Numbered from the stretch's first letter, positions 9,623 to 37,944 are shown. The stretch is 38,659 bases of DNA from an uncultured archaeon (GCA_964423085.1 CAYRDB010000002.1:1-38659); one strand, 5' to 3'. The notes: generated from the sequence alone by a model not told the origin. Made by a program: numbers and translations.

Positions 9623-10843
9623 TCACTTGTGCCCTGCCCAATCGGCCACGTATTTGTTTTCCAAACCGTGTATGTAGTTGTATGCTGCAAGCGCCGCCTT
9701 GCATCCTTCTCCGGCTGCGACAACTATCTGCTTGAATGGGGTGTCGGTCACATCGCCTGCCGCGAATATGCCCTGGCATGAAGTCTCGGAGTGCTTGTTG
9801 GTCTTTATCTGGCCGAGATCGTCTACGTCAACATTTCCTCCGACAAATCCGGTGTCAACATCCGAGCCTATCTCGACAAAAACGCCATCCACCTTTATTT
9901 CTTTTTCAGAGCAGGAATCGTCAGACACTATGATTGAATTCACAAAATTGTCCCCGCGTATCTCGCTTAATTTGGATTCCATTACAAGCTCTATGTTGCT
10001 TTTCGTCTTCGCTTCGTTTACCACATTCTCGAAAGCCCTGAACTCTGACCTCCTGTGTATGAGGTACACCTTTCTTGCAATCTTTGAAAGAAGCAGCGCA
10101 GCATCCAGAGCGGAATTGCCTCCTCCTACCACAGCGACGGTCTTTCCCTTGAACAATGGCGCATCGCATGTGGCGCAGTAGCTTACCCCCTTACCGCTGA
10201 ACTCGTCCTCCCCCGGCACGCCGAGGTTCCTAGGGGTCTTTCCGCTGGCTATTATAACAGTTTTGGAGTTGTATTCATGGTCGCATGTCGAGACCGTGAA
10301 TATTTTCTGGCCCCGGGTTTCGCTCTGAGAGATTTTTACAACGTTCTTCATTATTATTTCAGCGCCGAATCCCCTGGCTTGAGACTCGAATCTTTTCGCA
10401 AGGTCTGTGCCATCCACCTTCTCAAGGCCGGAATAGTTCTCTATCTCTGTTGTCCTGGCCATCTGGCCGCCTATGTCCTTTGTAATCACAAGCGTCTTCA
10501 TCTCTCTGCGTGAAGAATAGAGGGCGGCAGTGAGGCCTGCTGCAGATCCGCCTACTATGATAACATCGTAAAGAACGCCACTGGAATTGTTTGATTCAAC
10601 GGGATTATCTTGAGCTTTGTCCAGAAGCTTGTCCATCATAGGAACGTCGAATCCCACTATTATTTTTCCGTCTATGTCTATGACAGGAACTCCCATCTGG
10701 CCCGATTTCTCAATCATCTCCTGAGCAGCAAAGCTGTCATTCGAGACGTTTATGTCCTCGAACTCAAACCCCTTTGACCTTATGTAGTCCTTTGCCATAT
10801 GGCAATACGGACAGGCATCGGTTGAATAGACTTTGATTTTCAT
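9623..10843 (-). CDS. trxB: glutaredoxin-like domain fused to low-Mr thioredoxin reductase
   Basis: N-terminal Grx fold with CPYC (KVYSTDACPYCHMAKDY...GVPVIDIDGKIIVGFD). This is followed by FAD GxGxxG (IIVGGSAAGLTAAL), redox CATC (SYCATCDAPLF), NADPH GGGNSALD and HRRSEFRA (the HRRxxxR NADPH motif). Confidence 0.85.
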   Translation of the reverse strand: MKIKVYSTDACPYCHMAKDYIRSKGFEFEDINVSNDSFAAQEMIEKSGQMGVPVIDIDGKIIVGFDVPMMDKLLDKAQDNPVESNNSSGVLYDVIIVGGSAAGLTAALYSSRREMKTLVITKDIGGQMARTTEIENYSGLEKVDGTDLAKRFESQARGFGAEIIMKNVVKISQSETRGQKIFTVSTCDHEYNSKTVIIASGKTPRNLGVPGEDEFSGKGVSYCATCDAPLFKGKTVAVVGGGNSALDAALLLSKIARKVYLIHRRSEFRAFENVVNEAKTKSNIELVMESKLSEIRGDNFVNSIIVSDDSCSEKEIKVDGVFVEIGSDVDTGFVGGNVDVDDLGQIKTNKHSETSCQGIFAAGDVTDTPFKQIVVAAGEGCKAALAAYNYIHGLENKYVADWAGHK

Positions 10844-11687: not shown

Positions 11688-12743
11688 TTAGCAGCTTCCG
11701 TTGCTAGTAGAGCCACCGCTGTAGCTCTCTGAAAACGAAACCGAAGCCTGTTCTTTGCTCAGCTCTTGAGAGCACACAGACGGTTCAGCAGAGAATCCGC
11801 AACAAAGAAGCGTCTTTAGTGCGTCCGCTGTCCTTCCACCGAAATCGTACTCGCTCACAATCTGCCCGTTCATGACTAGAGTTGGAGATCCAGATACCAT
11901 ATATTGGTCCTGTATTTCAAAGTCTTCCTCTGCGTAGGCTATTCCCCTCTCGCTGTCAGACATGCAAGCGTCCAAAGAGTCTGTGTCTATTTCAGCCTCT
12001 GCAAGGCACTCTTCCGAATTACCCGCTTTCATGAAGCATGAAACATAATCCCAGTATTTGTCAGACTGCTCCTCTCTTATGCATATCTGCCTGAGATTCT
12101 CTTCTGCTTCTCTTTCTCCGTGCATGGCTGTTATTTCGCCGTTTACAACATCTCCTATGTACCTTACTTTTATGTTCTCAGCCAGTTCCGGAATATTCTT
12201 CACAACTTCGTAAAGTATCCTCTGCATCTGAACACCGTACGGGCATTCTGATACTACAAAAGCGTTTATAACAGGGTCCTGAGCCTTTGGAACATCGTCG
12301 CAAGTCATAGCAGGCTGCGTTGTGGTAGTAGTAGAAGAAACCTTGTTAGAGGTGTATATCACTTGTGGCAGAAACATTTCGCCATCTCTTGTGACATATA
12401 GCGTCTGATTGTCGGAAATCCCTTCTCCAAACACGGATATTTCGAATTCGATTATTCCGCTGTCTGTCAACTCATATCCAAGCAGTTGGATGTCCATTTC
12501 GCCGTAGTATGTCTCATAATAGTCTGTTATCCATGCTACGACCTTGTTGACAGCGGCGGCATCAGAATCTTGACCAACAAGAAACAAATTGCCTGAAATG
12601 CCGAACAAATTAGGTTGTAAGAAAAGAGCCACTACAATTGCCACAGCCACAAAGGTAGAAATCATCCACGGGTTTATTTTTGGAACCCTTATCGTTATAG
12701 TCCTTGGCTTCTCTGCCTCCGAGTTTTGATTGCTTTCTGCCAT
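11688..12743 (-). CDS. membrane-anchored extracytoplasmic DsbA-like thioredoxin-fold protein with CPYG in place of CxxC
   Basis: N-terminal TM anchor, a small alpha/beta domain and a Thr-rich linker. The Trx fold follows: FVVSECPYGVQMQ ... helical insert ... VSGSPTLVMNGQIV (DsbA-like cis-Pro loop). The tail is Cys-rich. Confidence 0.55.
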   Translation of the reverse strand: MAESNQNSEAEKPRTITIRVPKINPWMISTFVAVAIVVALFLQPNLFGISGNLFLVGQDSDAAAVNKVVAWITDYYETYYGEMDIQLLGYELTDSGIIEFEISVFGEGISDNQTLYVTRDGEMFLPQVIYTSNKVSSTTTTTQPAMTCDDVPKAQDPVINAFVVSECPYGVQMQRILYEVVKNIPELAENIKVRYIGDVVNGEITAMHGEREAEENLRQICIREEQSDKYWDYVSCFMKAGNSEECLAEAEIDTDSLDACMSDSERGIAYAEEDFEIQDQYMVSGSPTLVMNGQIVSEYDFGGRTADALKTLLCCGFSAEPSVCSQELSKEQASVSFSESYSGGSTSNGSC

Positions 12744-14112: not shown

Positions 14113-14389
14113 GGCGAGCCGGCCAGGTAGCTTCGGGTTGCTCTCAAAGGCAACCTGAGGAAGTTCCATCCATCAAAGGAGCCGTGAAAGCCGAAAGGCA
14201 GAGTAGCGGCACGCTGAGAAGCATCCGGCTGTATCAGAAACGGCACTTTGCTGCCCCGTTAACAATGAGGGAAACCTAGTTGGGGTAGTGTAAGATGAAA
14301 CGGACAGCAGGTCCTGATGCGATGCAAGCTTAGGCGCTAAGACAAATGCTACCCAACACAGAAGATGGGCTATGGCTGGCACGCCGCCA
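14113..14389 (+). ncRNA. rnpB: RNase P RNA (archaeal type A-like, compact, about 277 nt)
   Basis: CR-I-like GAGGAAGUUCCAUCC at 14155-14169. Also present are GUGAAAGCCGAAAGGC, CAGAAACGG, GGUAGUGUAAGAUGAAACGG and a CR-IV/V-like ACACAGAAGAUGGGCUAU. The 5' GGCGAGCCGGCC can pair with the 3' GGCUGGCACGCC (P1). A T5 run follows at 14390-14394. Ends are approximate. Confidence 0.8.
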
Positions 14390-19633: not shown

Positions 19634-21577
19634 ATGGCCACTAAAGGCGTTGAAAAGATAAAGAGTCTTCGAGGTTCCTTGTACAGGAAGATTGTCGAAA
19701 AATCTGAAAGCAAGAAGAACCCATCTCATTCTGTAGTAGGCTCGCTTCCCGGATTCAAAATACAAAGCAACGAGCACATAGTAGAGTTCCCTTCCACAAA
19801 GGACCTGACCACAATAGACTTTACGTATCCTCTAATGGAGCCATTCGCGTATGTGAATGTAAAATGGGACTTCAACTCCAAGGAGCTGCTATACAAAGTC
19901 ATAGAGCCTGACATGGACGAGAAGGAGAAAACGTTGCTTAAGAAAATATCAAACGCGTTGATAGAGCTCGTAGAGGTGGAACTTACTGCCATAAACAAGG
20001 AAGGCAAGGCCATAGAGTACATAGAGAAGCAGATTAAGAAGGTGATAAAGGACTTTGAATTTTCAATAACTCCCGAGCAGTACACAAAGATAATGTACTA
20101 CATTTACAGGAACTTCATCGGGTTCAATGAGCTCGAGCCGCTTCTCCAGGATCCGAACATAGAGGACATAAGCTGCGATGGCACTGGAATACCAATATAT
20201 GTAATACACAGGAAGTTCGGCTCGCTGAAGACCAACATTTTGTTCAACGACATGGAATATCTGAGGGAGTTTGTGATAAAGCTGGCAGAGCGATGCGGCA
20301 GGTATGTCAGTTATGCAGAACCGATACTGGATGGCACTCTGCCTGGAGGATCGCGTATATCAGCCACGCTCGCAGGCGACGTTGCCACTCGAGGGCCAAC
20401 TTTCACAATAAGAAAGTTCAGCGAAAAGCCTATATCGCCGATAGAGCAGATAGGATTCAAGACTGCTTCCCCTGCTGTTCTGGCATATTACTGGTACGTG
20501 GTAGAGCACGGCGCATCCATGCTGTTCGTAGGCGGGGTAGCCACTGGAAAGACCAGCTTCCTGAACAGCATATGCATGTTCATACCACCTGAAGCGAAGA
20601 TAGTCAGCATAGAGGACACCAGGGAGCTCAAGATACCAAACGAGCACTGGGTGCCCAGCCTGGCAAGGACTGGTTTCGGAATACCCATGCCTAGCGGAGA
20701 AAAGTATGGAGGTGTCTCGCTGTACGACCTTTTGAAAGAGAGCTTCAGGCAGAATCCGGACTATGTAATAGTAGGAGAGACTAGGGGTAAGGAAGCATAT
20801 GTAATGTTCCAAGGAATGAGCTCTGGCCATCCCAGCATGAGCACGTTCCACGCTGGATCTGTGGAAACAGTGGTGAAGAGGCTCACAACGCCGCCAATAG
20901 AGCTTTCACCGTCGCTCATCGAGAGTCTGAACATCGTGACCATTATGATACACGCAAGGGACAAAGGCAAGTCCGCTAGGAGAATAAAGGAGATTGTAGA
21001 AATAGAAAAGGTCGTACCAAAGACCGACGAGGTTGTAACGAACACTGTTTTCAAATGGAACCCTGTCAAGGACGACTACGAGTGGGTCAGCAACAGCATA
21101 ATGGTTGAAAAGCTCGTGCAAGCAAGGGGCGGAAAAGTGGAGGAGGCCTACGCCGAGATAGAGAGGAGGAGGAAAATATTGGAATGGATGTACAATAGCG
21201 AGATACGCGATTATCAGGAGGTCACGAGCATCATAAATAGGTACTACAAAGAGCCAGAAGTGTTGATGAAAGAGATAGGAATGTCCACCGAGCTTCCAAA
21301 AGTGAATGTGCCTGCTCACATGCACTCTGAGACAGCATTGAGTGCCGTCCACAGCGAGCCGACAGTGTCGCCAGAGCCGGCAATGGAATCGCCTGTGCCA
21401 AAGTTGTGCAAGAATGATTCCGAACCGCCTGAACGCAAAGGATTTGGAAACGAAATAAAGAAGCCGGCTGTTGTAAAGGCCAAGCTGTCGCCAAATTCAA
21501 AGTTGAAACTGGATGACTTGAACTCGATATTCAGCCTGATGAAGTTTGATTTCCTGAAAGAGGAAAAGGAAGTGTAA
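19634..21577 (+). CDS. type IV pilus/archaellum-type (GspE/FlaI/VirB11 superfamily) assembly ATPase with C-terminal extension
   Basis: Walker A FVGGVATGKTSFLNS, Walker B-region DYVIVGETRGKEA, and His box SGHPSMSTFHAG. About 98 extra C-terminal residues are low-complexity. Confidence 0.85.
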   Translation: MATKGVEKIKSLRGSLYRKIVEKSESKKNPSHSVVGSLPGFKIQSNEHIVEFPSTKDLTTIDFTYPLMEPFAYVNVKWDFNSKELLYKVIEPDMDEKEKTLLKKISNALIELVEVELTAINKEGKAIEYIEKQIKKVIKDFEFSITPEQYTKIMYYIYRNFIGFNELEPLLQDPNIEDISCDGTGIPIYVIHRKFGSLKTNILFNDMEYLREFVIKLAERCGRYVSYAEPILDGTLPGGSRISATLAGDVATRGPTFTIRKFSEKPISPIEQIGFKTASPAVLAYYWYVVEHGASMLFVGGVATGKTSFLNSICMFIPPEAKIVSIEDTRELKIPNEHWVPSLARTGFGIPMPSGEKYGGVSLYDLLKESFRQNPDYVIVGETRGKEAYVMFQGMSSGHPSMSTFHAGSVETVVKRLTTPPIELSPSLIESLNIVTIMIHARDKGKSARRIKEIVEIEKVVPKTDEVVTNTVFKWNPVKDDYEWVSNSIMVEKLVQARGGKVEEAYAEIERRRKILEWMYNSEIRDYQEVTSIINRYYKEPEVLMKEIGMSTELPKVNVPAHMHSETALSAVHSEPTVSPEPAMESPVPKLCKNDSEPPERKGFGNEIKKPAVVKAKLSPNSKLKLDDLNSIFSLMKFDFLKEEKEV

Positions 21578-21607
21578 AGCATTTTCTTCAACGAATGTCA
21601 ATATTAA

Positions 21608-22483
21608 ATGATGGCTAATCCAAGATCGCTGGCCGTGTCTATGTTCGGCTGGGCCGTTGACAAGTACGGCGACATGTTCACAGTGGTAAAAGAAAGTCTG
21701 CCGAAAGCCGGAATAAAGATGACTTTCCGAACCTACATGAGCATGGTTTTCTTCATTGCGGCGCTTTCGTACGCCAGCAGCTTCGCGATGCTCATATTCG
21801 CACTAAGGATAGTTGAGCTGTCACTAATGATGACAATCGCTTACTTGGTCTTCATACCTTTCACAATAGCAATATCGTGCGTTATAATGTTCATATTCTA
21901 CCCGTACAACAAGATGAGCGAGAGGAAAAAGAGCATAGAAACCAACCTGCCCTTCGTTCTGACGCACATGAGCGCAATCGCAGAGTCCGGGGTGCCCCCT
22001 TACGTGGTGTTTCGACTAATAGCGGAGTTCGAAGAGTATGGGGAGGTTTCTACTGAAATGAAGAAGATAGTCAGGAACATAGACACATTCGGAGTCAACC
22101 CGCTGAAATCTGTAAAAGAGGTGGCTGAGAGAACACCATCCGACAAGCTGAAGCAGATTCTTCTCGGATTTGTCACAACCACGGAATCGGGAGGAGACGT
22201 GAAGGTTTACCTGAAGAACGCCGGCCAGTCGGCGCTCTTCGACTGGAGGATAAAAAGGGAAAAGTTCCTACAGCAACTCTCCGCGTACGCGGAGTTCTAC
22301 ACTGGTATACTTATTGCCGCACCTCTGTTCATAGTCGCCCTTTTCGCAGTAATGGGAATGATACAGTCGAATGTTGCGGGATACGATATAATGTTCCTAA
22401 TGCAAATGAGCGTTTACGTCCTTATACCAGCCCTCAATGGCGGATTCCTGCTGTTCCTAACGGGCACCGAAGTGGAGATGTAA
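21608..22483 (+). CDS. pilus/archaellum platform membrane protein, single T2SS-F-like domain (FlaJ/TadB-like half)
   Basis: Polytopic protein. A cytoplasmic helical domain (LPFVLTHMSAIAESGVPPYVVFRLIAE...FGVNPLKSVKEVAERTPS..LKQILLG) is flanked by TM helices. Confidence 0.7.
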   Translation: MMANPRSLAVSMFGWAVDKYGDMFTVVKESLPKAGIKMTFRTYMSMVFFIAALSYASSFAMLIFALRIVELSLMMTIAYLVFIPFTIAISCVIMFIFYPYNKMSERKKSIETNLPFVLTHMSAIAESGVPPYVVFRLIAEFEEYGEVSTEMKKIVRNIDTFGVNPLKSVKEVAERTPSDKLKQILLGFVTTTESGGDVKVYLKNAGQSALFDWRIKREKFLQQLSAYAEFYTGILIAAPLFIVALFAVMGMIQSNVAGYDIMFLMQMSVYVLIPALNGGFLLFLTGTEVEM

Positions 22484-22484
22484 A

Positions 22485-23342
22485 ATGGGAAAAATAAAGA
22501 TAAAGATAGGCAAGAAAAAGTTCGAAATCAGGGACAAGATACTGATACTTGTAGTGATGAACGGTGTGCTCTCGGGATCGATAGCTGCAATAAACTTTTT
22601 GCTCCTAAGGAGCTCGCCGACGCTTTTCTCTTCGATAAACGTTATCGCGATGTTCATATTCGCGTTCCCGATAATACTGATAAAATACAGCGAATACAAC
22701 AAGAAGAAAAACCTCGAGGAGATGTTTCCCCTTTTCCTGAGGGATTTTGTAGAGTCGATAAGGGGAGGAATGACCGTACCCGCTGCGATGAAGTCCATAA
22801 CGAGGAACGACTACAAGGAGCTCAACCCGCACGTAAGGAAGATGTCAGCGCAGCTTGACTGGGGAATAACAGTAGAGAGGGCCTTAATGAACTTTGCGAA
22901 AGAGTCCCAGTCCAAGCTCATAATGAGGATAATATCATCGGTTAGGGAGAGCCACAGATTCGGAGGCAACCTGGCCGACACACTGGAAGCGCTAAGCAAC
23001 ACAGCGGTCGAGGTGGAAAGGCTAAGGGCGGAGAGGAAGCTCTACCTGCACTCCCAGATGATAACCGGCTACATAGTTTTCTTTGTATTCCTAGCGGTAA
23101 TGATAGGACTGGAAAAGTTTCTTGTTCCTAGCCTTAGCGGAGCGTCGATGGGACTCGGCGAAAGCACAAGCGCCACTTTCAGCGAGGACTTTAACGACAT
23201 ATTCCAAAACCTGATACTGATACAGGGGCTTTTCGCCGGACTGTCAACAGGAAAGATGGCTGAAGGCTCGATAATAGCCGGCCTCAAGCACAGCGTAACC
23301 ATGATGTTCATAGGATTCATAGTGTTTACAATAGCAGGATAA
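22485..23342 (+). CDS. pilus/archaellum platform membrane protein, second T2SS-F-like half (FlaJ/TadC-like)
   Basis: Same architecture (FPLFLRDFVESIRGGMTVPAAMKSI...DWGITVERALMNFAKES). It starts 1 nt after the preceding stop. Confidence 0.7.
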   Translation: MGKIKIKIGKKKFEIRDKILILVVMNGVLSGSIAAINFLLLRSSPTLFSSINVIAMFIFAFPIILIKYSEYNKKKNLEEMFPLFLRDFVESIRGGMTVPAAMKSITRNDYKELNPHVRKMSAQLDWGITVERALMNFAKESQSKLIMRIISSVRESHRFGGNLADTLEALSNTAVEVERLRAERKLYLHSQMITGYIVFFVFLAVMIGLEKFLVPSLSGASMGLGESTSATFSEDFNDIFQNLILIQGLFAGLSTGKMAEGSIIAGLKHSVTMMFIGFIVFTIAG

Positions 23343-23343
23343 A

Positions 23344-23808
23344 TCAGCACAAAGTGACGTGGCTGGATTCCACTTGATCGTCCACATTAGAGCAGTTGGT
23401 GTACACTCTTATGGTCTGGTACGAGCCGCTGTCGACGCTGACATTGAAGGACTTTATCTCTCCTGGAGCCAGCGACATTTGGCTGGAAGCGCAAGAAGTT
23501 CCGTTATTGCACAGGCGTATTGTGTGCGTGGTAGAGTTTGTGTAAAAGACCTGAAGGGTTATGCTTCCGAGATCCTTGTATTTCACGTTCTCTATCCTTC
23601 CATATATGTGGCTGTTGCAGTATTGGACGTTCGAGAGTGATATGCCGGCATAGCTGCAGTATATTTGATTTTCGGTCTCCTCTCCCACTGTGCCGCTTAT
23701 GTCAGAGCTGAACGTCTGCATCCACACGCTTATAATCCCGCCAACTGCAACAGTGAACGCGATAAGAAGCACAGTCGCAATCATGGGCGATATTGCTTTT
23801 GAATTCAT
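23344..23808 (-). CDS. archaeal type IV pilin-like protein (class III signal peptide)
   Basis: N-terminus MNSK/AISPMIATVLLIAFTVAVGG shows the archaeal pilin/archaellin N-terminal signature. The globular part has 6 Cys and several N-x-S/T sequons. Confidence 0.75.
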   Translation of the reverse strand: MNSKAISPMIATVLLIAFTVAVGGIISVWMQTFSSDISGTVGEETENQIYCSYAGISLSNVQYCNSHIYGRIENVKYKDLGSITLQVFYTNSTTHTIRLCNNGTSCASSQMSLAPGEIKSFNVSVDSGSYQTIRVYTNCSNVDDQVESSHVTLC

Positions 23809-23821
23809 TCATACACCCGAA

Positions 23822-24271
23822 TCAAGCCTTTGTGCACACCTTCTCCACCCTAAGCTCTGGGCATTGTGTGCCTATAATTATCCTGCTGAAGTCGTCCTGA
23901 ACATTTGTTATTTGGAACGATCTAAGCGCTCCTGAGGGCAGGTTGCCCTCCAAGTTTATCGGACTCGAAACCGAGCTGTTCGGGAACATCAGATATGCCT
24001 GAAGGGTGTTGAGCTCTATGTTCTGGTGGTTCTCGAGTATTAGATTGACAGCATTTGTAGAATTGTAGAAAACGCAGGAGTATATCGAAAAGTCCGCGAA
24101 CCTGCAGTCTATTTCGGTCTGGTTGGTCTCAGGGAGCGAAGTCTTCACATAGCTCGTCGCCCAGTATGCCATAAGTCCGGCTATAGTCATTGTGACCGCT
24201 ATGAGCAAGACCGCTGCTACCAGCGGAGATATCCCTAAAGACGACATATGTGCTAGTTTTTTAACGTGCAT
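23822..24271 (-). CDS. archaeal type IV pilin-like protein (class III signal peptide)
   Basis: SSLG/ISPLVAAVLLIAVTMTIAG, with 4 Cys in the globular part. The start may instead be Met9 (24247). Confidence 0.7.
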   Translation of the reverse strand: MHVKKLAHMSSLGISPLVAAVLLIAVTMTIAGLMAYWATSYVKTSLPETNQTEIDCRFADFSIYSCVFYNSTNAVNLILENHQNIELNTLQAYLMFPNSSVSSPINLEGNLPSGALRSFQITNVQDDFSRIIIGTQCPELRVEKVCTKA

Positions 24272-27963: not shown

Positions 27964-28317
27964 CTAAAATTTCATTAAGCTGTCAACAAGCTTCTTTGTA
28001 GCATGTTCAGCTGATTCGTCAGTAGGTCTGACCATTTCCCTGACAATCCTCTCGATGGCCTTGCGCTTTTCAGCTTCTCCGACCTCGACAATGGCCTTGA
28101 AAGGCTCCTGAATCACTGCCTGAGTCGTGCATACTTCGTCGAGCTTCTTCTTTATCTCGACCAGAGCGCACCAAAGCTGCGCAACCTTGACATCCTCTGA
28201 GTTCATGTAAGCGCACTTGTAGCGCTTTGTTGAGGACAGCAAGTCCGCCAGAATCGATTGAATCTCTGGGGGAAGACAGTCTTTCCAATCTGTTTCCTCT
28301 TTCATGGTTATCATCAT
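27964..28317 (-). CDS. hypothetical helical protein
   Basis: The ORF has several candidate ATGs (28317, 28314, 28305), and the track start is a TTG. No family recognised. It lies immediately downstream of the giant surface protein gene. Confidence 0.4.
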   Translation of the reverse strand: MMITMKEETDWKDCLPPEIQSILADLLSSTKRYKCAYMNSEDVKVAQLWCALVEIKKKLDEVCTTQAVIQEPFKAIVEVGEAEKRKAIERIVREMVRPTDESAEHATKKLVDSLMKF

Positions 28318-28353
28318 TTGTTTAATTATCAATTAGTAGTAAAACTTAAATAT

Positions 28354-31300
28354 TCAACGAAAGGCTTCCTTTTTCTTTTCGATGAATATTTTCAAAAAAG
28401 AAAAGTTTTTGAAATATTCCGGCTCGTACGAAGTCCTTCTTACTTTTATTACAAATCCCTTCCTGTAAATCAGATATGCTATGAGAAGCACCAGGAATAT
28501 TATTAGCAGTATTATCAGGAGCGTTACTATATCTGTCTTGAACAGACTCTTTCCATATCCGTCGTCCTGCAATACCTCTATTGTCCCTGTCTTGGAGTCG
28601 GCTATGTTACCTAGTCCGGTTATCTTGAATGTATGCAAGCCTGCTGAAACGTCGCACGGCACAGATGCGTATCCGGTTATTATCTTGGTCTCTCCCCTTT
28701 TAACAGCCACGCTCTCGGGAACTTGTATCCATTCTGCAGCATCCCCGCTAACTTTAAGGTCTATCATGCTGTCCTCGCCGGTGTTCCTAACTTTGAACGT
28801 GAAGCTGGAAACCGAGCATTTCTCAAGGTCGTACTTGTCGTCAACATATATTTTAGGCAGTCCCTTGTTAAGTTCGTCCGGAAGCACGCACTTTGAGTTA
28901 TCGCATCCGTACGGGCAGTACTCTACAATCTTCCATCTTGTCTCATAGTTGTCGTCCAAATACTTCTGCTGCTTATAGTCCCCGAAGCACCTGTAGTCAG
29001 ACTGGCTTTCGGCAGATTTGTCCTTCACATAAAAGCTGCTTGAATAAGCTGTCTTCGAATAACTCGTACTGTCGCTCCAGTAGACAAGCTTTATTGCGTA
29101 TTTTCCAGAGTCTTTGACCACCTTTGAGCATGTAGAATACTTTATGCTGTCTCCTGACACATAGAGACGGTTGTAATCGCAATCCATTGACACGCAGTTG
29201 GTGTACCCGTCGGCCCTGCAAACATAAGCGTTGAAATTGAACCATCTTCCAGAATCTTCAAAGTTCTGAATCTTTATTCTGGCCGAAACCGTATCGCGCT
29301 CGTAAGAGTCCGACGGTCTAGATATAGACGCTGAGAATGACTGGCTTTGATCAGAATCGCATCTGTAGTCGTTATATATGCTAGTATACGAGCATGAACC
29401 GCCCGAACAGTAATAGTCGCGGTAGGTGGTTCCGTAGCAGCCGTCGTTGCTGTTGCAGTTCTCTACGTCAGTCCAGGACGACCATTCTGTGCAAGAGTCT
29501 GAATCGTAGTTGCCGCATGTCCTCTTCTGGACAATGCCTCCGCTGCACCTGCTTTCTTCTGCTCCAGCTGAGCATTCGTTATAGCAAGTGTCTGAAGTAC
29601 ATCTATAATCGTTGTAGCTCGAAGTGTACGAGCAAGCTCCATTAGAGCAGTAATAGTCGCGGTATGTGGTTCCGTAGCAGCCGTCGTTGCTGTTGCAGTT
29701 CTCTACGTCAGTCCAGGACGACCATTCTGTGCAAGAGTCTGAATCGTAGTTGCCGCATGTCCTCTTCTGGACAATGCCTCCGCTGCACCTGCTTTCTTCT
29801 GCTCCAGCTGAGCATTCATCGGTGCACTGTGATCCAGAAACACAAGCAGGAACTCCAGGAGTGCAATATTCATTAGATGAACACTCGTCTGCTATGCTGT
29901 AAGGTGTCCAAGCAGTCGAGCCGTCGCATGAAGACCCTGTCCCAGAGCAGTATTTTTGAAGATATCTAACTCCGACGTCACTTCCATATCCAGTACCCCA
30001 CGGACAAGAATATTGTACATCTATATCAGAATCGCATACATAGCTAGACGGCCTGTAAAGGTCGTCAGGACAGCTGGCGCTTGAACCAGTGCAGTATTCT
30101 GCCACATCGCATGGTCCGAAAGATGCCCTGCAAACTGTGCCGGAAGGCTTGAAAGTCCCTGTTGTTGTGTCGCAGCAAGCGCCCGAAGTGCACTCAGATG
30201 AAGTGCACCTAGCGTCGTTGTAGCTCGAAGTGTACGAGCAAGCTCCATTAGAGCAGTAATAGTCGCGGTATGTGGTTCCGTAGCAGCCGTCGTTGCTGTT
30301 GCAGTTCTCTACGTCAGTCCAGGACGACCATTCTGTGCAAGAGTCTGAATCGTAGTTGCCGCATGTCCTCTTCTGGACAATGCCTCCGCTGCACCTGCTT
30401 TCTTCTGCTCCAGCTGAGCATTCATCGGTGCACTGTGGAGCTGAAACGCAAGCAGGAACTCCAGGAGTGCAATACTCGCTATAAGAACAGTAGTCTGCCA
30501 CACTCCAAGAACCCCATGATGTAAGTCCGGTACAATATGGGCTGTCTCCGGAGCAGCGCCTCTCCATATATCTAACTCCGACATCATTGCCAAAAGTCGT
30601 CCCCCAAGGGCATCCATATTCCGTCTGCTCTTTTGAATTGCAAACGTATGACGAAGACTTGTACGAGTCTGCTGGACAGCTGGCGCTTGAACCAGTGCAG
30701 TATTCTGCCACATCGCAATTGCCTACAGCAGCTCTGCACATTGTTGTAGAAGACTTGAACTTGCCTGTCGCTATGTCGCAGCACACTCCTGAAGTGCACT
30801 CTGGTTGGGACACCATCTCATATACAGCCGTCTTTGAAGACGAGTCTTTTGTAACAACTCCTGAGCATCCGCTTGAGCACTCGTATGTATTTCCCCCGTA
30901 AACAACCTGGCTCTGATAGGAGTATGAAACTGTGTCTGAAAGACCTGAAACTGACAGGCTTGATGATGTGGAAGAGTGCTTTGCTCCGTCCACATACATA
31001 TACCAGTAAGCCCCGGAAGGAAGTCCCGATGTGTAAAAGTTAGAAGTGAATGTTACAGGGCTGAAATAAGCGTATATTGTACCGCTGGCCTCTGCGTAGA
31101 ACATTATCGGATTGGAGCTTGTCTCGCCTCCCTCATAACCATCAAACTTTACAAAGCTGTATCCGTCTTTCGGATATGCAAAAAGGGTGACATATTCTCC
31201 GACCGCTACTGTGGCAGTGGTGCTGCTTTCAGTGCATCTTGTATAGTAAGGCTTGTCGTACACGCAGACCTTTCCCTCGCCTCCTGCGACAACAAGATTC

Positions 31301-31680
31301 CATGTTACTTCTGGCTTCTTCTCATAAGTGGCGTAAGTTATGTAACCTACGCTATAGTCCTTGACCTCGCCTGAGCAACCGCTGACGCATTCGTATCCAT
31401 CAGGAACAGTGTATGTGTACGAAGTGCCTATCGCCAAGTCCCATGGGATGTATCCATAGTCTCCGCTTGACGAATAGTATTTAGTTGTAGAGTCGGCTTG
31501 CACACCCCAGTTAACATCTGAAGGCAGGCCTGTCTGGTAGAACCTTGAAGATACAGGTGGATATATCCAAGGAAAAAGAACTTCAGCCAGCGCTTGCTGG
31601 GATGTCATAGTCAGCGCTAAAAAGGCTATTATAGTTACTATTGAATAGTGAATAATACTTCTAGACAACACTGTTCTCAC
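28354..31680 (-). CDS. giant Cys-rich surface protein (1108 aa): signal peptide, beta-sandwich repeats, 2x disintegrin-like motif, 3x 74-aa Cys module, CARDB-like domain, C-terminal TM anchor
   Basis: GTG start. Signal-like N-terminus ends in ALA/EV. FY(Q/T)(T/S)GLPS repeats occur at aa ~47 and ~215, and an InlB-B-repeat-like segment at aa ~126-208. CCD...CR(x5)CDVAEYCTGSSASCP(A/D)D occurs at aa 294-347 and 496-549. ECSAGAEESRCSGGIVQKRTCGNYDSDSCTEWSSWTDVENC... occurs three times. The TM helix is IVTLLIILLIIFLVLLIAYLIY, followed by a basic tail. My count is about 74 Cys. Confidence 0.85.
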   Translation of the reverse strand: MRTVLSRSIIHYSIVTIIAFLALTMTSQQALAEVLFPWIYPPVSSRFYQTGLPSDVNWGVQADSTTKYYSSSGDYGYIPWDLAIGTSYTYTVPDGYECVSGCSGEVKDYSVGYITYATYEKKPEVTWNLVVAGGEGKVCVYDKPYYTRCTESSTTATVAVGEYVTLFAYPKDGYSFVKFDGYEGGETSSNPIMFYAEASGTIYAYFSPVTFTSNFYTSGLPSGAYWYMYVDGAKHSSTSSSLSVSGLSDTVSYSYQSQVVYGGNTYECSSGCSGVVTKDSSSKTAVYEMVSQPECTSGVCCDIATGKFKSSTTMCRAAVGNCDVAEYCTGSSASCPADSYKSSSYVCNSKEQTEYGCPWGTTFGNDVGVRYMERRCSGDSPYCTGLTSWGSWSVADYCSYSEYCTPGVPACVSAPQCTDECSAGAEESRCSGGIVQKRTCGNYDSDSCTEWSSWTDVENCNSNDGCYGTTYRDYYCSNGACSYTSSYNDARCTSSECTSGACCDTTTGTFKPSGTVCRASFGPCDVAEYCTGSSASCPDDLYRPSSYVCDSDIDVQYSCPWGTGYGSDVGVRYLQKYCSGTGSSCDGSTAWTPYSIADECSSNEYCTPGVPACVSGSQCTDECSAGAEESRCSGGIVQKRTCGNYDSDSCTEWSSWTDVENCNSNDGCYGTTYRDYYCSNGACSYTSSYNDYRCTSDTCYNECSAGAEESRCSGGIVQKRTCGNYDSDSCTEWSSWTDVENCNSNDGCYGTTYRDYYCSGGSCSYTSIYNDYRCDSDQSQSFSASISRPSDSYERDTVSARIKIQNFEDSGRWFNFNAYVCRADGYTNCVSMDCDYNRLYVSGDSIKYSTCSKVVKDSGKYAIKLVYWSDSTSYSKTAYSSSFYVKDKSAESQSDYRCFGDYKQQKYLDDNYETRWKIVEYCPYGCDNSKCVLPDELNKGLPKIYVDDKYDLEKCSVSSFTFKVRNTGEDSMIDLKVSGDAAEWIQVPESVAVKRGETKIITGYASVPCDVSAGLHTFKITGLGNIADSKTGTIEVLQDDGYGKSLFKTDIVTLLIILLIIFLVLLIAYLIYRKGFVIKVRRTSYEPEYFKNFSFLKIFIEKKKEAFR
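29408..29577. repeat. intragenic DNA repeat copy c (170 nt, 1 mismatch to copy b)
   Basis: Aligned by eye to 29648-29817. The single difference is at 29425 (g versus t). The offset is 240 nt, which is 80 codons. Confidence 0.85.
29609..29831. repeat. intragenic DNA repeat copy b (223 nt, identical to copy a)
   Basis: Reads identically to 30215-30437. The offset is 606 nt, which is 202 codons. Confidence 0.85.
30215..30437. repeat. intragenic DNA repeat copy a (223 nt)
   Basis: Identical to 29609-29831. The identical antisense ORF peptides in the supplied track (MWFRSSRRCCCSS...) corroborate this. Confidence 0.85.
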
Positions 31681-31732
31681 AAGAGAATGATGTATAGAAA
31701 AGTATAAAAAAGGATTGAAAATGTATTAACTT

Positions 31733-31990
31733 ATGTCTGAAGCAGCAGTTTCTGTGCAAGTGATGGAAAAAGGCAGGCTTCTCCTCAAGCAGGGCAAAGC
31801 CAGAATGGAAGTAAACACAGACAAGAGGGCGCATTTCACCGTGGACGGGGAGACAGCGGAGCACTCGGTAATATTCAACAAGTCCAAAAAAACATGGTCG
31901 TGCGACTGCAGGTTCAGCACTATGAAGGGAAGAGAATGTAGCCACATATACGCCTGCAAGCTAATTATGGAAAAGCTGCAACAGCGCTAG
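31733..31990 (+). CDS. SWIM zinc-finger protein
   Basis: WSCDCRFSTMKGRECSHIYACKL has the CxCx(n)CxH SWIM signature. Length is 85 aa. It is divergent from the giant surface protein gene across a 52-nt spacer. Confidence 0.7.
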   Translation: MSEAAVSVQVMEKGRLLLKQGKARMEVNTDKRAHFTVDGETAEHSVIFNKSKKTWSCDCRFSTMKGRECSHIYACKLIMEKLQQR

Positions 31991-35809: not shown

Positions 35810-35937
35810 AACTATTATTCTCATCGGAACTTTAGCTTCGAAACCGTAAAGTTTTACGGACTCAAACTATTTTTGGATAGTTTTCAAAATTCGGTTAGGG
35901 ATAATACCCTTAAAGGACATACAAAAGTTTGAGGGAT

Positions 35938-37944
35938 ATGGAAAAAGAGGAAATCGTTGAAAAATTTTCGGAATTCCTTAACGAGTTCTACACGGACGAG
36001 CTAGTCACATCTCTGACTGAAAACAAAAAATCAATATCAATAGATTATTCCATACTCGACAAGTTCAACATCGAGCTGGCCGACATGCTGTGCGAGAACC
36101 CGGTCGAAACCATGGCTGCGATGGAGGAAGCGATAAAGCAGATAGACACGGGTCTGGGCGAGGCCAGGCTCAGGGTCAGGTTCCTCAACCTCCCAAAGGA
36201 CAAGGAGATAAGAATCAGGAACATCAGGTCCGAGCAGATAGAGAGGATGATAGTTGTGGACGGCATAGTCAAGAGGGCTAGCGACATCAGGCCTGAGGTT
36301 TCGGAGGCGGTATTCACGTGCCCGGAATGCGGTGCGAAAATATCGGTGATACAGACCGAGCAGATACTGCACAACCCAGAGGCGTGCGACTGCGGGTGCA
36401 GGCGCGGCTTCAAGCTCGTCGACCAGAAGCTTTACGACGCCAGGTGGATAACCATTGAGGAGCCTTTCGAGATAACCACGGGCGAGCAGCCCTCCAACAT
36501 CAACGTTTTCCTGAAGGAGGACCTGACATCTACATTTTTTCACAAGAGGACCGACCCTGGAAACAGGATAAAAGTGACGGGCGTTCTCAAGCAGATGCCC
36601 AAACGCGTCAAAGGCTCCAAGTCTAGGCAGCTGGACATTTTCATAGACGCCAACAACGTCGAGGCTGTCGAGCTCGAATGGGAGGAGCTGGGGATAACTC
36701 CGGAGGACGAGGAGAAGATTGTCGAGCTGGCGAAGGACCCGCTCATATACGAAAAGCTAGTCGCTTCCGTCGCTCCGGGAATATACGGCCTCAGCGAGGT
36801 GAAGGAGGCGATAGTGCTTCAGATGTTCGCGGGAGAGCAGCACGTCCTGATGGACAAGACAAGGATACGCGGAAACATACACATACTCCTTGTAGGAGAC
36901 CCTTCCACTGCAAAGTCCCAGATAATGAAACTAACGTCCACGCTCATACCAAGGGGCAAGTACGCTTCGGGAACGGGCGTTACAGGCGCGGGTCTTACTG
37001 CGACTGTTGTGAAGGACGAGGACTTTATGGGAGGGTGGGTTCTCGAAGCCGGAGCGCTTGTGATGGCAAACCGCTCTGTTTGCGCCATAGACGAGTTCAG
37101 CCACGTTGCGCCGAGCGACATGAGCAAGCTTCAGGAGGCCATGTCCATGGAGACCATATCCATAGCGAAAGCTTCCATTGTGGCAACCCTTCCTGCGCAG
37201 ACTTCGATACTGGCTGGAGCGAACCCAAAGTTCGGTAGGTTCGACCCTTACATACCCATAAGGGAGCAGGTGGACATCAACGAGGTCCTGCTTTCGAGGT
37301 TCGACCTGAGGTTCGCGCTCAGGGACCTGCCTAACCCTGAAAGGGACGGGAAGATTGCGGAGCACATACTAAATATGAGGCACTTTCAGCAGGAATCTTC
37401 CATACCCGAGATAGACCCCGCTTTCCTGAGAAAGTACATTTCTTATGCTCGAGCGAACGTCCACCCCGTGCTCACAAAGGACGCCGGAAACTTTCTGAAG
37501 GATTTCTACCTGCAGATGAGGTCGAAGAGCGGAGAGGATTCGCCCGTAGCAATAACGGTCAGGCAGTACGACGCGCTAATCAGGATATCTGAGGCGTCGG
37601 CGAAAGTCAGGCTGTCACCCACAGTGGAGCCGGAGGACGCGCAGAGGGCGATAAAGCTCATGAGCTTTTCGCTCAGGCAGTTCGGGTTCGAGCCAGAAAC
37701 TGGAAAGATAGACATCGACAGGGTGGAGGGCCAGAAGATGACTTCCGCACAGAGGGGGAAGACAAAGTTGATGATAGACCTCGTGAACGCGCTCGAGGCA
37801 GAGGTGGGCAAGGACATACCAAAGGACGAGCTTCTGAAAAGGGCCAACCAGGAGGGAGTGGGCAATGCCGAAGAGCTTCTAAACACAATGTTGAGGGAGG
37901 GCATGCTCTACCAGCCCAAGCCCAACATACTGAGGAAGGTGTAG
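35938..37944 (+). CDS. mcm: MCM replicative helicase
   Basis: Zn motif CPECGAKI...CDCGC, Walker A ILLVGDPSTAKSQ, Walker B CAIDEFS, arginine finger SRFDL, and a C-terminal wH. First ATG used (the track start at 35929 is a TTG). No intein. Confidence 0.95.
   Translation: MEKEEIVEKFSEFLNEFYTDELVTSLTENKKSISIDYSILDKFNIELADMLCENPVETMAAMEEAIKQIDTGLGEARLRVRFLNLPKDKEIRIRNIRSEQIERMIVVDGIVKRASDIRPEVSEAVFTCPECGAKISVIQTEQILHNPEACDCGCRRGFKLVDQKLYDARWITIEEPFEITTGEQPSNINVFLKEDLTSTFFHKRTDPGNRIKVTGVLKQMPKRVKGSKSRQLDIFIDANNVEAVELEWEELGITPEDEEKIVELAKDPLIYEKLVASVAPGIYGLSEVKEAIVLQMFAGEQHVLMDKTRIRGNIHILLVGDPSTAKSQIMKLTSTLIPRGKYASGTGVTGAGLTATVVKDEDFMGGWVLEAGALVMANRSVCAIDEFSHVAPSDMSKLQEAMSMETISIAKASIVATLPAQTSILAGANPKFGRFDPYIPIREQVDINEVLLSRFDLRFALRDLPNPERDGKIAEHILNMRHFQQESSIPEIDPAFLRKYISYARANVHPVLTKDAGNFLKDFYLQMRSKSGEDSPVAITVRQYDALIRISEASAKVRLSPTVEPEDAQRAIKLMSFSLRQFGFEPETGKIDIDRVEGQKMTSAQRGKTKLMIDLVNALEAEVGKDIPKDELLKRANQEGVGNAEELLNTMLREGMLYQPKPNILRKV

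Follow-up and report, generated by a model that had tools for sequence, protein, structure and literature searches.

Disintegrin-type modules of a prokaryotic repeat family in a predicted cysteine-rich surface protein of an uncultured archaeon

The locus and the modular architecture of the protein

The window analysed here is a stretch of 38,659 nucleotides of DNA from an uncultured archaeon (GCA_964423085.1 CAYRDB010000002.1:1-38659). An earlier note, made from the sequence alone, had assigned it to a compact, probably host-dependent archaeon. The genome encodes MCM, Dph2, an archaeal-type AspRS and an archaeal RNase P RNA, which mark it as archaeal and, most likely, as DPANN. The closest named MCMs are those of Ca. 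Aenigmatarchaeota (59–62% identity), and the organism, judged by these MCM relatives, probably belongs to this DPANN lineage. Its host dependence is assumed from the lineage.

The giant cysteine-rich ORF described in the earlier note was confirmed, and counting gave 74 Cys (Table 1). With the GTG start the protein includes a signal peptide, which would be dropped if translation began at the alternative ATG at nt 31608 (M25). Other gene callers begin at M25, and for this reason an exact-protein look-up with the full ORF returned no match. The TATA-like stretch upstream of the GTG would be compatible with a leaderless archaeal transcript. Hydropathy analysis placed an N-terminal hydrophobic segment (...ALA|EV) at aa 4–32 and backed both the signal peptide and the C-terminal transmembrane helix with its basic tail, as previously proposed. 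The protein is predicted to be surface-anchored, with type I topology.

Table 1. Features of the gene and its product; nucleotides are numbered from the first letter of the window.
Feature	Residues (aa)	Nucleotides	Strand	Remarks
Whole gene	1-1108	28354..31680	(-)	1108 aa; predicted type I membrane surface protein; 74 Cys; GTG start
TATA-like A/T-rich stretch		31691..31713	(-)	TTTTTTATAC...TTTCTATACA; 11-33 nt upstream of GTG; by-eye inspection
Signal peptide (predicted)	1-32	31585..31680	(-)	MRTVLSR + hydrophobic core + ALA/EV cleavage; hydropathy and inspection
Membrane-distal N-terminal region	33-291	30808..31584	(-)	Two FYxxGLPS domains and an InlB-B-repeat-like segment
Disintegrin-like module 1 (Dis1)	292-353	30622..30807	(-)	Da-type; 8 Cys; GNCD loop
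Ca2+-site-III consensus, module 1	322-338	30667..30717	(-)	CDVAEYCTGSSASCPAD; exact consensus match; predicted site
Extension module 1 (Ext1)	354-416	30433..30621	(-)	6 Cys; β-rich; YGCPWG..G.DVG.R..C.G.S..C.G..W..W
CT module 1 (CT1)	417-495	30196..30432	(-)	10 Cys; CTDEC...CGNYDSDSCTEWSSW; all-β
Disintegrin-like module 2 (Dis2)	496-555	30016..30195	(-)	8 Cys; GPCD loop
Ca2+-site-III consensus, module 2	524-540	30061..30111	(-)	CDVAEYCTGSSASCPDD; exact consensus match; predicted site
Extension module 2 (Ext2)	556-618	29827..30015	(-)	6 Cys
CT modules 2 and 3 (CT2, CT3)	619-697 and 698-776	29353..29826	(-)	10 Cys each
Membrane-proximal region	777-1045	28546..29352	(-)	10 Cys in even-numbered groups
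Transmembrane helix (predicted), K/R-rich cytoplasmic tail and stop codon	~1046-1075 (helix), 1076-1108 (tail)	28354..28545	(-)	Hydropathy

Seven small modules, in the order Dis-Ext-CT-Dis-Ext-CT-CT, make up the central 485 residues and hold 58 of the 74 Cys. The membrane-distal region consists of two "FYxxGLPS...YEC(V/S)SGCSG" domains (aa 33–124 and 209–291) that flank the segment previously called InlB-B-repeat-like; this segment could be placed at aa 125–208, but its match was below threshold (Flg_new_2, 20.9 bits versus 23.6). A search with the N-terminal 261 aa gave one weak match only. The region has almost no detectable homologues, and its domains belong to no recognisable ligand-binding family. 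PDB sequence relatives were not found for either the N- or the C-terminal region, and the CARDB-like domain suggested earlier yielded no CARDB match, only a sub-threshold one to DUF6385 (21.1 versus 26.8 bits). Of the features expected of a prokaryotic adhesin, the protein has a signal-peptide-like N-terminus, a transmembrane anchor and a stalk of repeats; the searches revealed no distal domain whose binding function is known.

The extension module is a member of a CPR/DPANN family with no Pfam relative and no PDB fold match. A relationship to the ADAM cysteine-rich family, which the earlier note had put forward for checking, was not borne out: at E ≤ 1, ADAM_CR (PF08516) matched neither the protein nor any member of the 18-row anchored alignment in which the extension modules were compared. 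A thrombospondin-like W..W / R.R pattern had been suspected in the extension and CT modules, but is unsupported, since the extension family has no ADAM_CR or TSP1 matches. No PDB fold relative was found for the CT module, of which the CT2 and CT3 DNA repeats are 74–94% identical to CT1. A Reprolysin/Pep_M12B metalloproteinase was matched neither in Pfam at E ≤ 10 nor in NCBIfam, where neither the protein nor the bacterial arrays described below are covered by a model. We also asked whether a GILT-like neighbour might be a dedicated catalyst of disulfide formation; as its CPYG motif contains a single Cys and its gene is 15 kb distant, we propose no link.

Assemblies from short reads are interrupted at CT2/CT3 and at the two edges of the repeat core, the repeat DNA is up to 94% identical, and the copy number of the central modules is that of one assembly. 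We considered whether faulty assembly could have produced the ORF or its repeats, and find this extremely unlikely. Both flanking thirds of the gene, including Dis1, were recovered at 99.3–99.9% identity in eight independent read-set assemblies, and the reading frame is open across all 3.3 kb. Furthermore, at the DNA level Dis1 and Dis2 share only 75% identity, and Dis2 is therefore not an assembly duplicate of Dis1.

Relationship to ADAM and snake-venom disintegrin domains

The two motif stretches that the earlier note had likened to metazoan disintegrin domains were found exactly at aa 294–347 (nt 30640–30801) and aa 496–549 (nt 30034–30195), with the sequences quoted there. Both modules pass the gathering score (35.1 bits) of the Pfam Disintegrin family, PF00200, which gave 57.2 bits with the whole protein; the isolated 62-aa modules scored 43.2 and 43.5 bits (E about 6e-11). 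Because the match of the isolated modules spans only profile positions 30–75 of 75, the modules lack the N-terminal shoulder (Ds) half with Ca2+ site II. The whole-protein match reaches position 5, but there overlaps the "YECSSGCSG" end of the preceding β domain. Searching the PDB with phmmer returned the D domains of snake-venom P-III proteins and ADAM22 (E from 4.9e-7 to 1e-3), as well as echistatin. A profile made from 15 bacterial modules and the two window modules matched 43 PDB sequences, all of them ADAM, SVMP or disintegrin, with a best E of 4.9e-13 across all 53 positions.

Structure prediction with AF2 gave a model with a pLDDT of 89.7, high confidence being reached in one of the five models and the remaining four lying at 65–72. 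The top 36 Foldseek matches in the PDB were all ADAM/SVMP/disintegrin structures (prob 1.0, 35–46% identity), and the model fits the D domains with an RMSD of 1.2–2.3 Å over 50–55 residues, although the prediction may in part reproduce ADAM structures on which AF2 was trained. The short length of the region kept the Foldseek E-values modest (1e-3 to 0.4). Since the similarity is robust both statistically and structurally, it reflects homology and not coincidence. Convergent evolution, one of the origins offered in the earlier note, is unlikely in view of the profile match (E of 5e-13) over the full 53 positions.

The Dis module is a homologue of the arm (Da) subdomain and the start of the wrist (Cw) of the ADAM/P-III D domain. 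An "ECxSGxCC" hairpin opens the module; after it comes a single 32-aa, 4-Cys unit with the pattern F/Y-K-x-S-x-T-x-C-R-x5-CD-x2-E-x-C-x-G-x4-C-P-x-D, in which the ligand pattern of the ADAM Ca2+ site III is complete. The similarity to the D domain runs over about 53 residues and takes in an XXCD loop with an extra Cys. With regard to the disintegrin hallmark described earlier, the modules retain 8 of the 9 canonical Cys columns, but "CC(D/E)..C" is not matched, as neither copy has a Cys following CCxx. The ADAM disulfide pattern must therefore be altered in one pair at least. Unlike the ADAMs, the protein has no metalloproteinase, ADAM_CR or EGF, and its modules, in their archaeal context, are followed by the unrelated, β-rich "YGCPWG" extension. 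The Cys count is even in 13 of 13 modules, which argues for paired disulfides rather than free thiols; the protein may form such disulfides, although the habitat of the organism is probably anoxic.

The Ca2+-site-III consensus of ADAM D domains, CD(X)2(E/D)XCXG(X)4C(X)2(D/N) (PMC4885070), is matched exactly twice in the protein and in 0 of 20,000 composition-preserving shuffles, and the two predicted sites may bind Ca2+. The modules also resemble the short RGD disintegrins echistatin, rhodostomin and trimestatin in their length of about 45–50 residues and in their "EC.SG.CC" start; echistatin was matched at E = 6e-3 with a single sequence and 4e-6 with the profile, and trimestatin and rhodostomin were matched by Foldseek. 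In contrast to these proteins, the loop of the window modules has no RGD/KGD but includes a Cys, and it would be expected to be locked. The window modules also keep the site-III ligands, which are missing from most true disintegrins (PMC4885070).

The loops read RAAVGNCD in module 1 and RASFGPCD in module 2. Neither is a Cys-free loop of the RGD/KGD/MLD tripeptide type; both correspond to the (D/S)XCD loop with its extra Cys, in which Cys and Asp are kept and the first position is G instead of D/S. The earlier note had equated them with the integrin-binding loop. Their position is indeed equivalent, but they are of the XXCD type (GNCD/GPCD), which in the solved ADAM/P-III structures is tied by a disulfide to the following subdomain, gains stability from Ca2+ site III and is sterically "inaccessible for protein-protein interactions" (PMC4885070). 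It is conceivable that the CR-x5-CD loop is nevertheless adhesive in itself, binding an integrin-like or other host receptor as RGD disintegrins do, since the protein is surface-anchored, a strain variant (G320S) sits in the loop of module 1 and turns it into SNCD, and isolated DC fragments of P-III SVMPs have adhesion-modulating activities (PMC4885070). Apart from the inaccessibility of such loops, however, a tightly linked extension module directly follows both of them, and a bacterial ORF can contain as many as 60 copies of the unit, as is typical of a structural repeat and not of a specific ligand, making an adhesive loop quite unlikely. Integrins are not known from archaeal or bacterial hosts. 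By analogy with the ADAMs, the disintegrin-type module most likely acts as a rigid spacer rather than as an integrin-style binding loop.

Distribution of the module in prokaryotes

Disintegrin modules had been described in the earlier note as overwhelmingly eukaryotic. This view could not be upheld: with one strict 9-aa pattern, at least 596 tblastn-confirmed copies were found in prokaryotic GTDB species genomes, and the protein itself already bears a precomputed PF00200 tag in a public collection. The survey for homologues found relatives in bacteria and DPANN archaea, with eight DPANN loci among the best 80. Bacterial and archaeal genomes with the disintegrin-type module number in the hundreds, and the module is no eukaryotic rarity.

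In Myxococcota and Binatia the 32-aa unit forms tandem arrays with a median of 11 and up to 60 units per ORF, and the 32-aa period was seen in 643 spacings at 70 bacterial loci. The bacterial arrays, including those of "Deltaproteobacteria" MAG proteins (e.g., P0005 and P0010), share the 4-Cys unit and site-III pattern of the window modules at 60–75% identity and are recognised by PF00200 only. They consist of 7–60 consecutive units, however, whereas the window protein has two isolated single units, each inside another module. One or two PF00200-type units also occur in giant, multi-domain, Cys-rich extracellular proteins (50–170 Cys) of other DPANN archaea and of CPR bacteria (Micrarchaeota L004, L007 and L034; Woesearchaeota L027 and L081; Peribacteria L018; Pacebacteria P0021). 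These relatives share the "YGCPWG" extension and "CGNYDSDSCLEWS" modules with the window protein; unlike it, they carry CBM96, Big_x, DUF11, DUF4215 and esterase partners, and the N-terminal 260 aa of the window protein are essentially unique. Aligned with CPR-type modules, the window modules display a clean insertion of 32–34 aa that adds exactly 4 Cys, indicating that exactly one 32-aa unit was inserted into a CPR/DPANN-type "ECTSGxCC...YGCPWG" scaffold. A profile search with the supermodule, made through a word index, gave only six short matches; no full-length orthologue of the protein was found, nor any synteny between the window and other archaeal loci.

The family was defined in animals, and an oomycete protein (Achlya, P0008) is among the matches, which might suggest a recent horizontal transfer of the module out of a eukaryote, reflecting an interaction with a eukaryotic host. 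Such a transfer is most improbable. The window modules are nearer to the Micrarchaeota, Woesearchaeota and Deltaproteobacteria copies (57–75% identity) than to any ADAM/SVMP (35–46%), lack the Ds half that is present in all eukaryotic D domains and sit in a CPR/DPANN-specific scaffold, and the GC content is unremarkable across the gene. The protein is a further member of a known prokaryotic module family that is undescribed in the literature searched, where we found no paper on prokaryotic disintegrin domains and only a Pfam listing for Minicystis rosea. The disintegrin signature in this archaeon is thus one instance of a widespread prokaryotic extracellular repeat, labelled in current databases only through an animal-derived Pfam model, and not an animal-like oddity.

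For ADAM and venom biology, the long bacterial arrays of the Ca-site-III unit lead to a concrete hypothesis of how the D domain may have arisen and of its modular logic. Tentatively, and with considerable doubt, we suggest that the eukaryotic disintegrin domain arose from a prokaryotic 32-aa, 4-Cys, Ca2+-binding repeat, abundant in Myxococcota-type bacteria, which on repeated occasions was taken up, as single units or in pairs, into host-attachment proteins of ultra-small DPANN and CPR episymbionts; the window protein would then be a host-contact adhesin with an N-terminal tip under diversifying selection.

Proposed role of the stalk and its variable tip

We consider it reasonably likely that the product is a Sec-exported, type I surface protein of a DPANN cell, in which a disulfide-rich stalk holds a strain-variable N-terminal tip for partner binding. 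The 32-aa unit would serve as a Ca2+- and disulfide-locked rigid element, as in ADAMs, and not as a ligand loop, and the stacking of modules would produce a stiff stalk. The stalk would hold the lineage-specific, strain-variable N-terminal β domains (aa 33–291) away from the membrane or S-layer, where they would bind the partner. For a DPANN cell, the most plausible partner is a component of the surface of a host cell or matrix. We infer both the stalk role and adhesion, and it is plausible that the protein mediates attachment to a host cell. DPANN/CPR biology thereby gains a well-delimited candidate surface protein whose tip varies between strains and whose stalk combines three module types, of which two have no solved relative.

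The protein could instead be a general part of the envelope or matrix that recognises no partner, for instance a strut associated with the S-layer, a coat that protects the cell, or a Cys-rich protein that buffers metals or redox state. Repetitive Cys-rich modules dominate the architecture, which has no recognisable ligand-binding family, related modules occur in free-living Myxococcota, and the 74 Cys could chelate metals if reduced. The even Cys count per module points to disulfides instead, and elsewhere in DPANN/CPR surface proteins, among which modules have been shuffled, the module directly follows CBM96 or Ig-like domains typical of adhesins. Strain variation also makes a general envelope role unlikely, as non-synonymous variants gather at the membrane-distal tip, which is unexpected for a purely structural strut.

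Within aa 1–424, 10 non-synonymous and 11 synonymous variants were counted, compared with 3:37 in housekeeping neighbours (Fisher p = 6e-4), in a small sample of 24 sites from metagenomic contigs of uncharacterised population structure. The C-terminal third has 0 non-synonymous variants. All 10 except G320S fall in the N-terminal region (aa 33–291), with a hotspot at aa 224/225/228, and sites 180, 224 and 228 are multi-allelic.

Relationship of the Dis modules to ADAM and venom disintegrin domains

The two disintegrin-like modules of the giant protein, Dis1 and Dis2, were compared with known disintegrin domains by sequence and by predicted structure. Against the Pfam Disintegrin model PF00200 (gathering score 35.1 bits), the whole protein scored 57.2 bits, and the isolated 62-residue modules scored 43.2 and 43.5 bits (E about 6e-11). 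The PDB sequences matched by phmmer were solely snake-venom P-III metalloproteinases (SVMPs), ADAM22 and short disintegrins (E from 4.9e-7 to 3e-2). A profile made from 15 bacterial and the two window modules, run against PDB sequences, recovered 43 distinct sequences, each an ADAM, SVMP or disintegrin chain; the best E-value was 4.9e-13 across all 53 profile positions. This establishes that the Dis modules are homologous to the ADAM/SVMP disintegrin domains, rather than convergent with them.

Residues 288–420 were modeled with AlphaFold2 from an 18-row alignment. The best model had a pLDDT of 89.7 and the remaining four 65–72. The top 36 PDB matches of the best model were all ADAM, SVMP or disintegrin structures, and the superposition on these structures that the earlier note had proposed gave 1.2–2.3 Å over 50–55 residues, with 35–46% identity. 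With a PF00200 score above the gathering score and matches to the PDB in both sequence and structure, the disintegrin likeness read in the earlier note is not a chance resemblance.

[quoted passage not shown] Both modules (CDVAEYCTGSSASCPAD and CDVAEYCTGSSASCPDD) fit the site-III consensus CD(X)2(E/D)XCXG(X)4C(X)2(D/N) (PMC4885070) exactly, and the consensus was found in none of 20,000 shuffles of the giant protein. Only the second half of PF00200 (positions 30–75) is covered by the window modules, which in sequence corresponds to Da and the first Cys of the wrist. The Cys of the CC(D/E)xxC element, which had been claimed for both copies, is absent from each, and with one canonical Cys missing, at least one disulfide pair cannot be as in ADAMs.

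Since its score is above the threshold, the giant protein is formally a member of PF00200. Unlike the ADAMs, it has no metalloproteinase, Ds or EGF domain, and the suggested search with the ADAM cysteine-rich model found no ADAM_CR in it. It is not an integrin-type disintegrin either, because the RGD-type loop is absent: the loops, previously said to correspond to the integrin-binding loop, read GNCD and GPCD and are of the locked type. The loop serves as a ligand in RGD disintegrins only, where the constraints on it have been lost (PMC4885070). PF00200 is already assigned in a public protein collection to the giant protein and to dozens of prokaryotic relatives, and "disintegrin" is among the Pfam families in a myxobacterial genome paper, while our literature search found no paper discussing prokaryotic disintegrin-type modules. 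The kind is already visible in databases, and the giant protein is a further member. What is new is modest: the use of the Da/site-III element as a 32-residue repeat unit in bacteria, and the presence of single inserted units in DPANN and CPR proteins.

The disintegrin-type unit in prokaryotes

Many of the first-round homologues were environmental bacterial proteins with 7–22 tandem copies of a ~32-residue unit that matches HMM positions 17–52 of the window module and has the pattern F/Y-K-x-S-x-T-x-C-R-x5-CD-x-AE-x-C-x-G-x-S-x2-CP-x-D. One genome per GTDB species was scanned with the single pattern CD[VT]AE[YTF]C[TS]G, followed by tblastn confirmation. The scan yielded at least 599 pattern stretches, 596 of which were confirmed, so that disintegrin modules are not overwhelmingly eukaryotic, as had been supposed; the source genome of the window was absent among the GTDB matches listed. 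The best 80 of these comprised 70 loci from other bacteria (mostly Myxococcota, Binatia and "Deltaproteobacteria"), two from CPR bacteria, both Peribacteria, and eight from DPANN archaea: four in Micrarchaeota, among them the complete genome of Ca. Fermentimicrarchaeum limneticum, three in Woesearchaeota and one in an "uncultured archaeon". In the 70 bacterial loci, 643 spacings of the strict site-III consensus had the 32-residue period, and ORFs carried up to 60 units (median 11); in the archaeal and CPR loci of the same set, there were 1–2 units per ORF. The bacterial arrays scored up to 270 bits with PF00200, the only model to recognize them, as no NCBIfam model matched.

CPR-type modules (P0021 from Pacebacteria, P0009, P0040, P0041 and others) read ECTSGxCC...Y(K/R)PSSYVC-x7-YGCPWG... 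When aligned with this scaffold, each window copy has a clean extra 32–34 residues, adding exactly four Cys, and this insertion is one repeat unit. Identity of the window units is 57–75% to prokaryotic copies, but only 35–46% to any ADAM or SVMP, which argues against the possibility that the window modules came by recent transfer from a eukaryote to an archaeon.

The products of three Micrarchaeota loci (L004, 3656–11110; L034, 4579–12240; L007, 4693–12168) exceed 2,480 residues and have 109–119 Cys; one of the three comes from the complete genome of Ca. Fermentimicrarchaeum limneticum. In the two scanned for domains, L004 and L034, two disintegrin-type units come directly after a CBM96 carbohydrate-binding module.

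Domain layout and possible role of the giant protein

Translation of the ORF gave the motif positions, quoted sequences and approximate Cys count of the earlier note (see table). The surface location is likewise upheld by hydropathy, which shows two hydrophobic segments only, an N-terminal signal-peptide-like segment and a C-terminal membrane segment with a basic tail, predicting type-I topology and an ectodomain ~1015 residues long. The signal peptide is present only if the GTG start is used; M25, an internal ATG, is the start in gene calls of other assemblies. By inspection only, an A/T-rich TATA-like stretch lies 11–33 nt 5' of the GTG, a position that would fit a leaderless transcript. A Pfam search found no match for the proposed CARDB-like domain, with a DUF6385 match below threshold, and the match for the InlB-B-repeat-like segment was also sub-threshold.

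Features of the giant protein and of the surrounding window
Feature	Nucleotides	Strand	Residues	Remarks
Giant ORF	28354–31680	-		uninterrupted; 1108 aa, exactly 74 Cys
Signal-peptide-like segment			4–32	MRTVLSR ahead; end ALA/EV; hydropathy
N-terminal region			33–291	InlB-B-like segment between two FYxxGLPS...YEC(V/S)SGCSG segments
Central rod			292–776	seven Cys-rich modules: Dis1-Ext1-CT1-Dis2-Ext2-CT2-CT3
Dis1			292–353	
Dis1 motif	30640–30801		294–347	
Dis2			496–555	
Dis2 motif	30034–30195		496–549	
Ext modules	30433–30621, 29827–30015		354–416, 556–618	YGCPWG..G.DVG.R...YCSG.S..C.G..W..W...DYC..E.C
CT modules	29353–30432		417–495, 619–697, 698–776	three repeats, 10 Cys each; CxxEC..(GQ)..C...CGNYDSDSC(L/T)EWS...
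Membrane-proximal region			777–1045	third part of ectodomain
C-terminal hydrophobic segment			~1046–1075	then K/R-rich 33-aa tail; hydropathy
Downstream ORF	27964–28332	-		122 aa
Divergent ORF	31733–31990	+		85 aa
Type IV pilus-like locus	19634–24271			
Pilin gene	23344–23808			archaellin/type-IV-pilin N-terminal domain
Pilin gene	23822–24271			UpsA-like
GILT/DsbA-like ORF	11688–12743	-		
Oxidoreductase-glutaredoxin ORF	9623–10843	-		
Archaeal RNase P RNA	14114–14384			
MCM helicase	35929–37944	+		671 aa, intein-free

The Cys count is even in every module (2, 2, 2, 8, 6, 10, 8, 6, 10, 10, 4, 4 and 2), as would be expected if all disulfides were paired within modules. Together with the long bacterial arrays and the Ext (extension) module that directly follows, this parity points to a structural role for the 32-residue unit. 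On the simplest interpretation, the Dis units would combine with the Ext and CT modules into a stalk stiffened by Ca2+ and disulfides. In other DPANN/CPR proteins, the unit lies directly C-terminal to CBM96 carbohydrate-binding or Ig-like domains, which is where a spacer beneath a binding head is usually found.

The Ext modules belong to a family found in CPR proteins, such as Pacebacteria P0021, and have no Pfam or PDB match. The extension (residues ~356–420) is β-rich in the AlphaFold2 model, and a structure search against the PDB matched nothing. Its YCSGxSSxC motif resembles YCTGSSASC of the disintegrin unit, a hint that the segment may be a degenerate copy of that unit. The CT family is common in CPR/DPANN DUF11-type surface proteins; the module was confidently predicted as all-β (AlphaFold2 pLDDT 90.3) and has no Pfam model or PDB fold relative.

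The binding head of the window protein would be the N-terminal 260 residues, for which homologue and PDB sequence searches found almost no detectable relatives. Across strain-level contigs, the giant gene has 10 non-synonymous and 14 synonymous differences. The non-synonymous differences all lie within residues 27–320, with none in the C-terminal third; sites 180, 224 and 228 are multi-allelic, and a cluster at 224/225/228 falls within the second FYTSGLPSGAYWYM segment. Housekeeping neighbours in the same contigs have a non-synonymous:synonymous ratio of 3:37. In these small samples, Fisher's test gave p = 6e-4 when the N-terminal part was compared with the housekeeping neighbours and p = 0.026 when the whole gene was compared with all neighbours. 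Small as the sample is, this is the pattern that diversifying or relaxed selection on a partner-recognition surface would be expected to leave, and a role in attachment, to a host cell or a surface glycan, is therefore plausible.

Assembly support, organism and neighbouring loci

Contigs 99.3–99.9% identical to the window occur in eight public read-set assemblies, and all end at nt 30408/30445 or 29437/29455, coinciding with the edges of the CT-coding D1 DNA repeats (74–94% identical). Because these contigs cover both outer thirds of the giant gene, those parts, including Dis1, are independently confirmed, and the module count in the middle (nt 29437–30445) is supported by the present assembly alone. 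The genome is present in read sets such as ERR6222548 and SRR10812148. Duplication of Dis1 during assembly as the origin of Dis2 was ruled out, since the two are only 75% identical in DNA.

The genes around the giant gene are archaeal housekeeping genes (Dph2, archaeal-type AspRS, RNase HII, MCM, aIF2-α, S2 and RNR). In an exhaustive search, MCM relatives had 56–68% identity; the only named ones were Candidatus Aenigmatarchaeota MAG proteins (62% and 59%), which supports a DPANN affiliation. Host dependence would be expected from the general biology of DPANN.

The downstream ORF has the same orientation as the giant gene and lies 22 nt beyond it, and thus may be co-transcribed with it; it appears as a 117-aa gene call in all strain contigs and has no match in Pfam or NCBIfam. 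The divergent ORF has a SWIM-zinc-finger-like CxC...CxH pattern (WSCDCRF...RECSHIY) and no Pfam match, and is kept in the strain contigs with synonymous changes only. The pilus-like locus, 4–9 kb from the giant gene, encodes a PilB-type ATPase and two T2SSF membrane proteins in addition to its two pilin genes. Two further ORFs may be relevant to thiol/disulfide handling, given an exported 74-Cys protein: one encodes a membrane-anchored protein whose extracytoplasmic GILT/DsbA-like thioredoxin-fold domain has a single-Cys CPYG motif only, the other a pyridine-nucleotide-disulfide oxidoreductase fused to glutaredoxin. Most of the closest public relatives of the MCM helicase are 1000–2000 residues long and match in 2–4 stretches, which points to the presence of 1–3 inteins in most of them.
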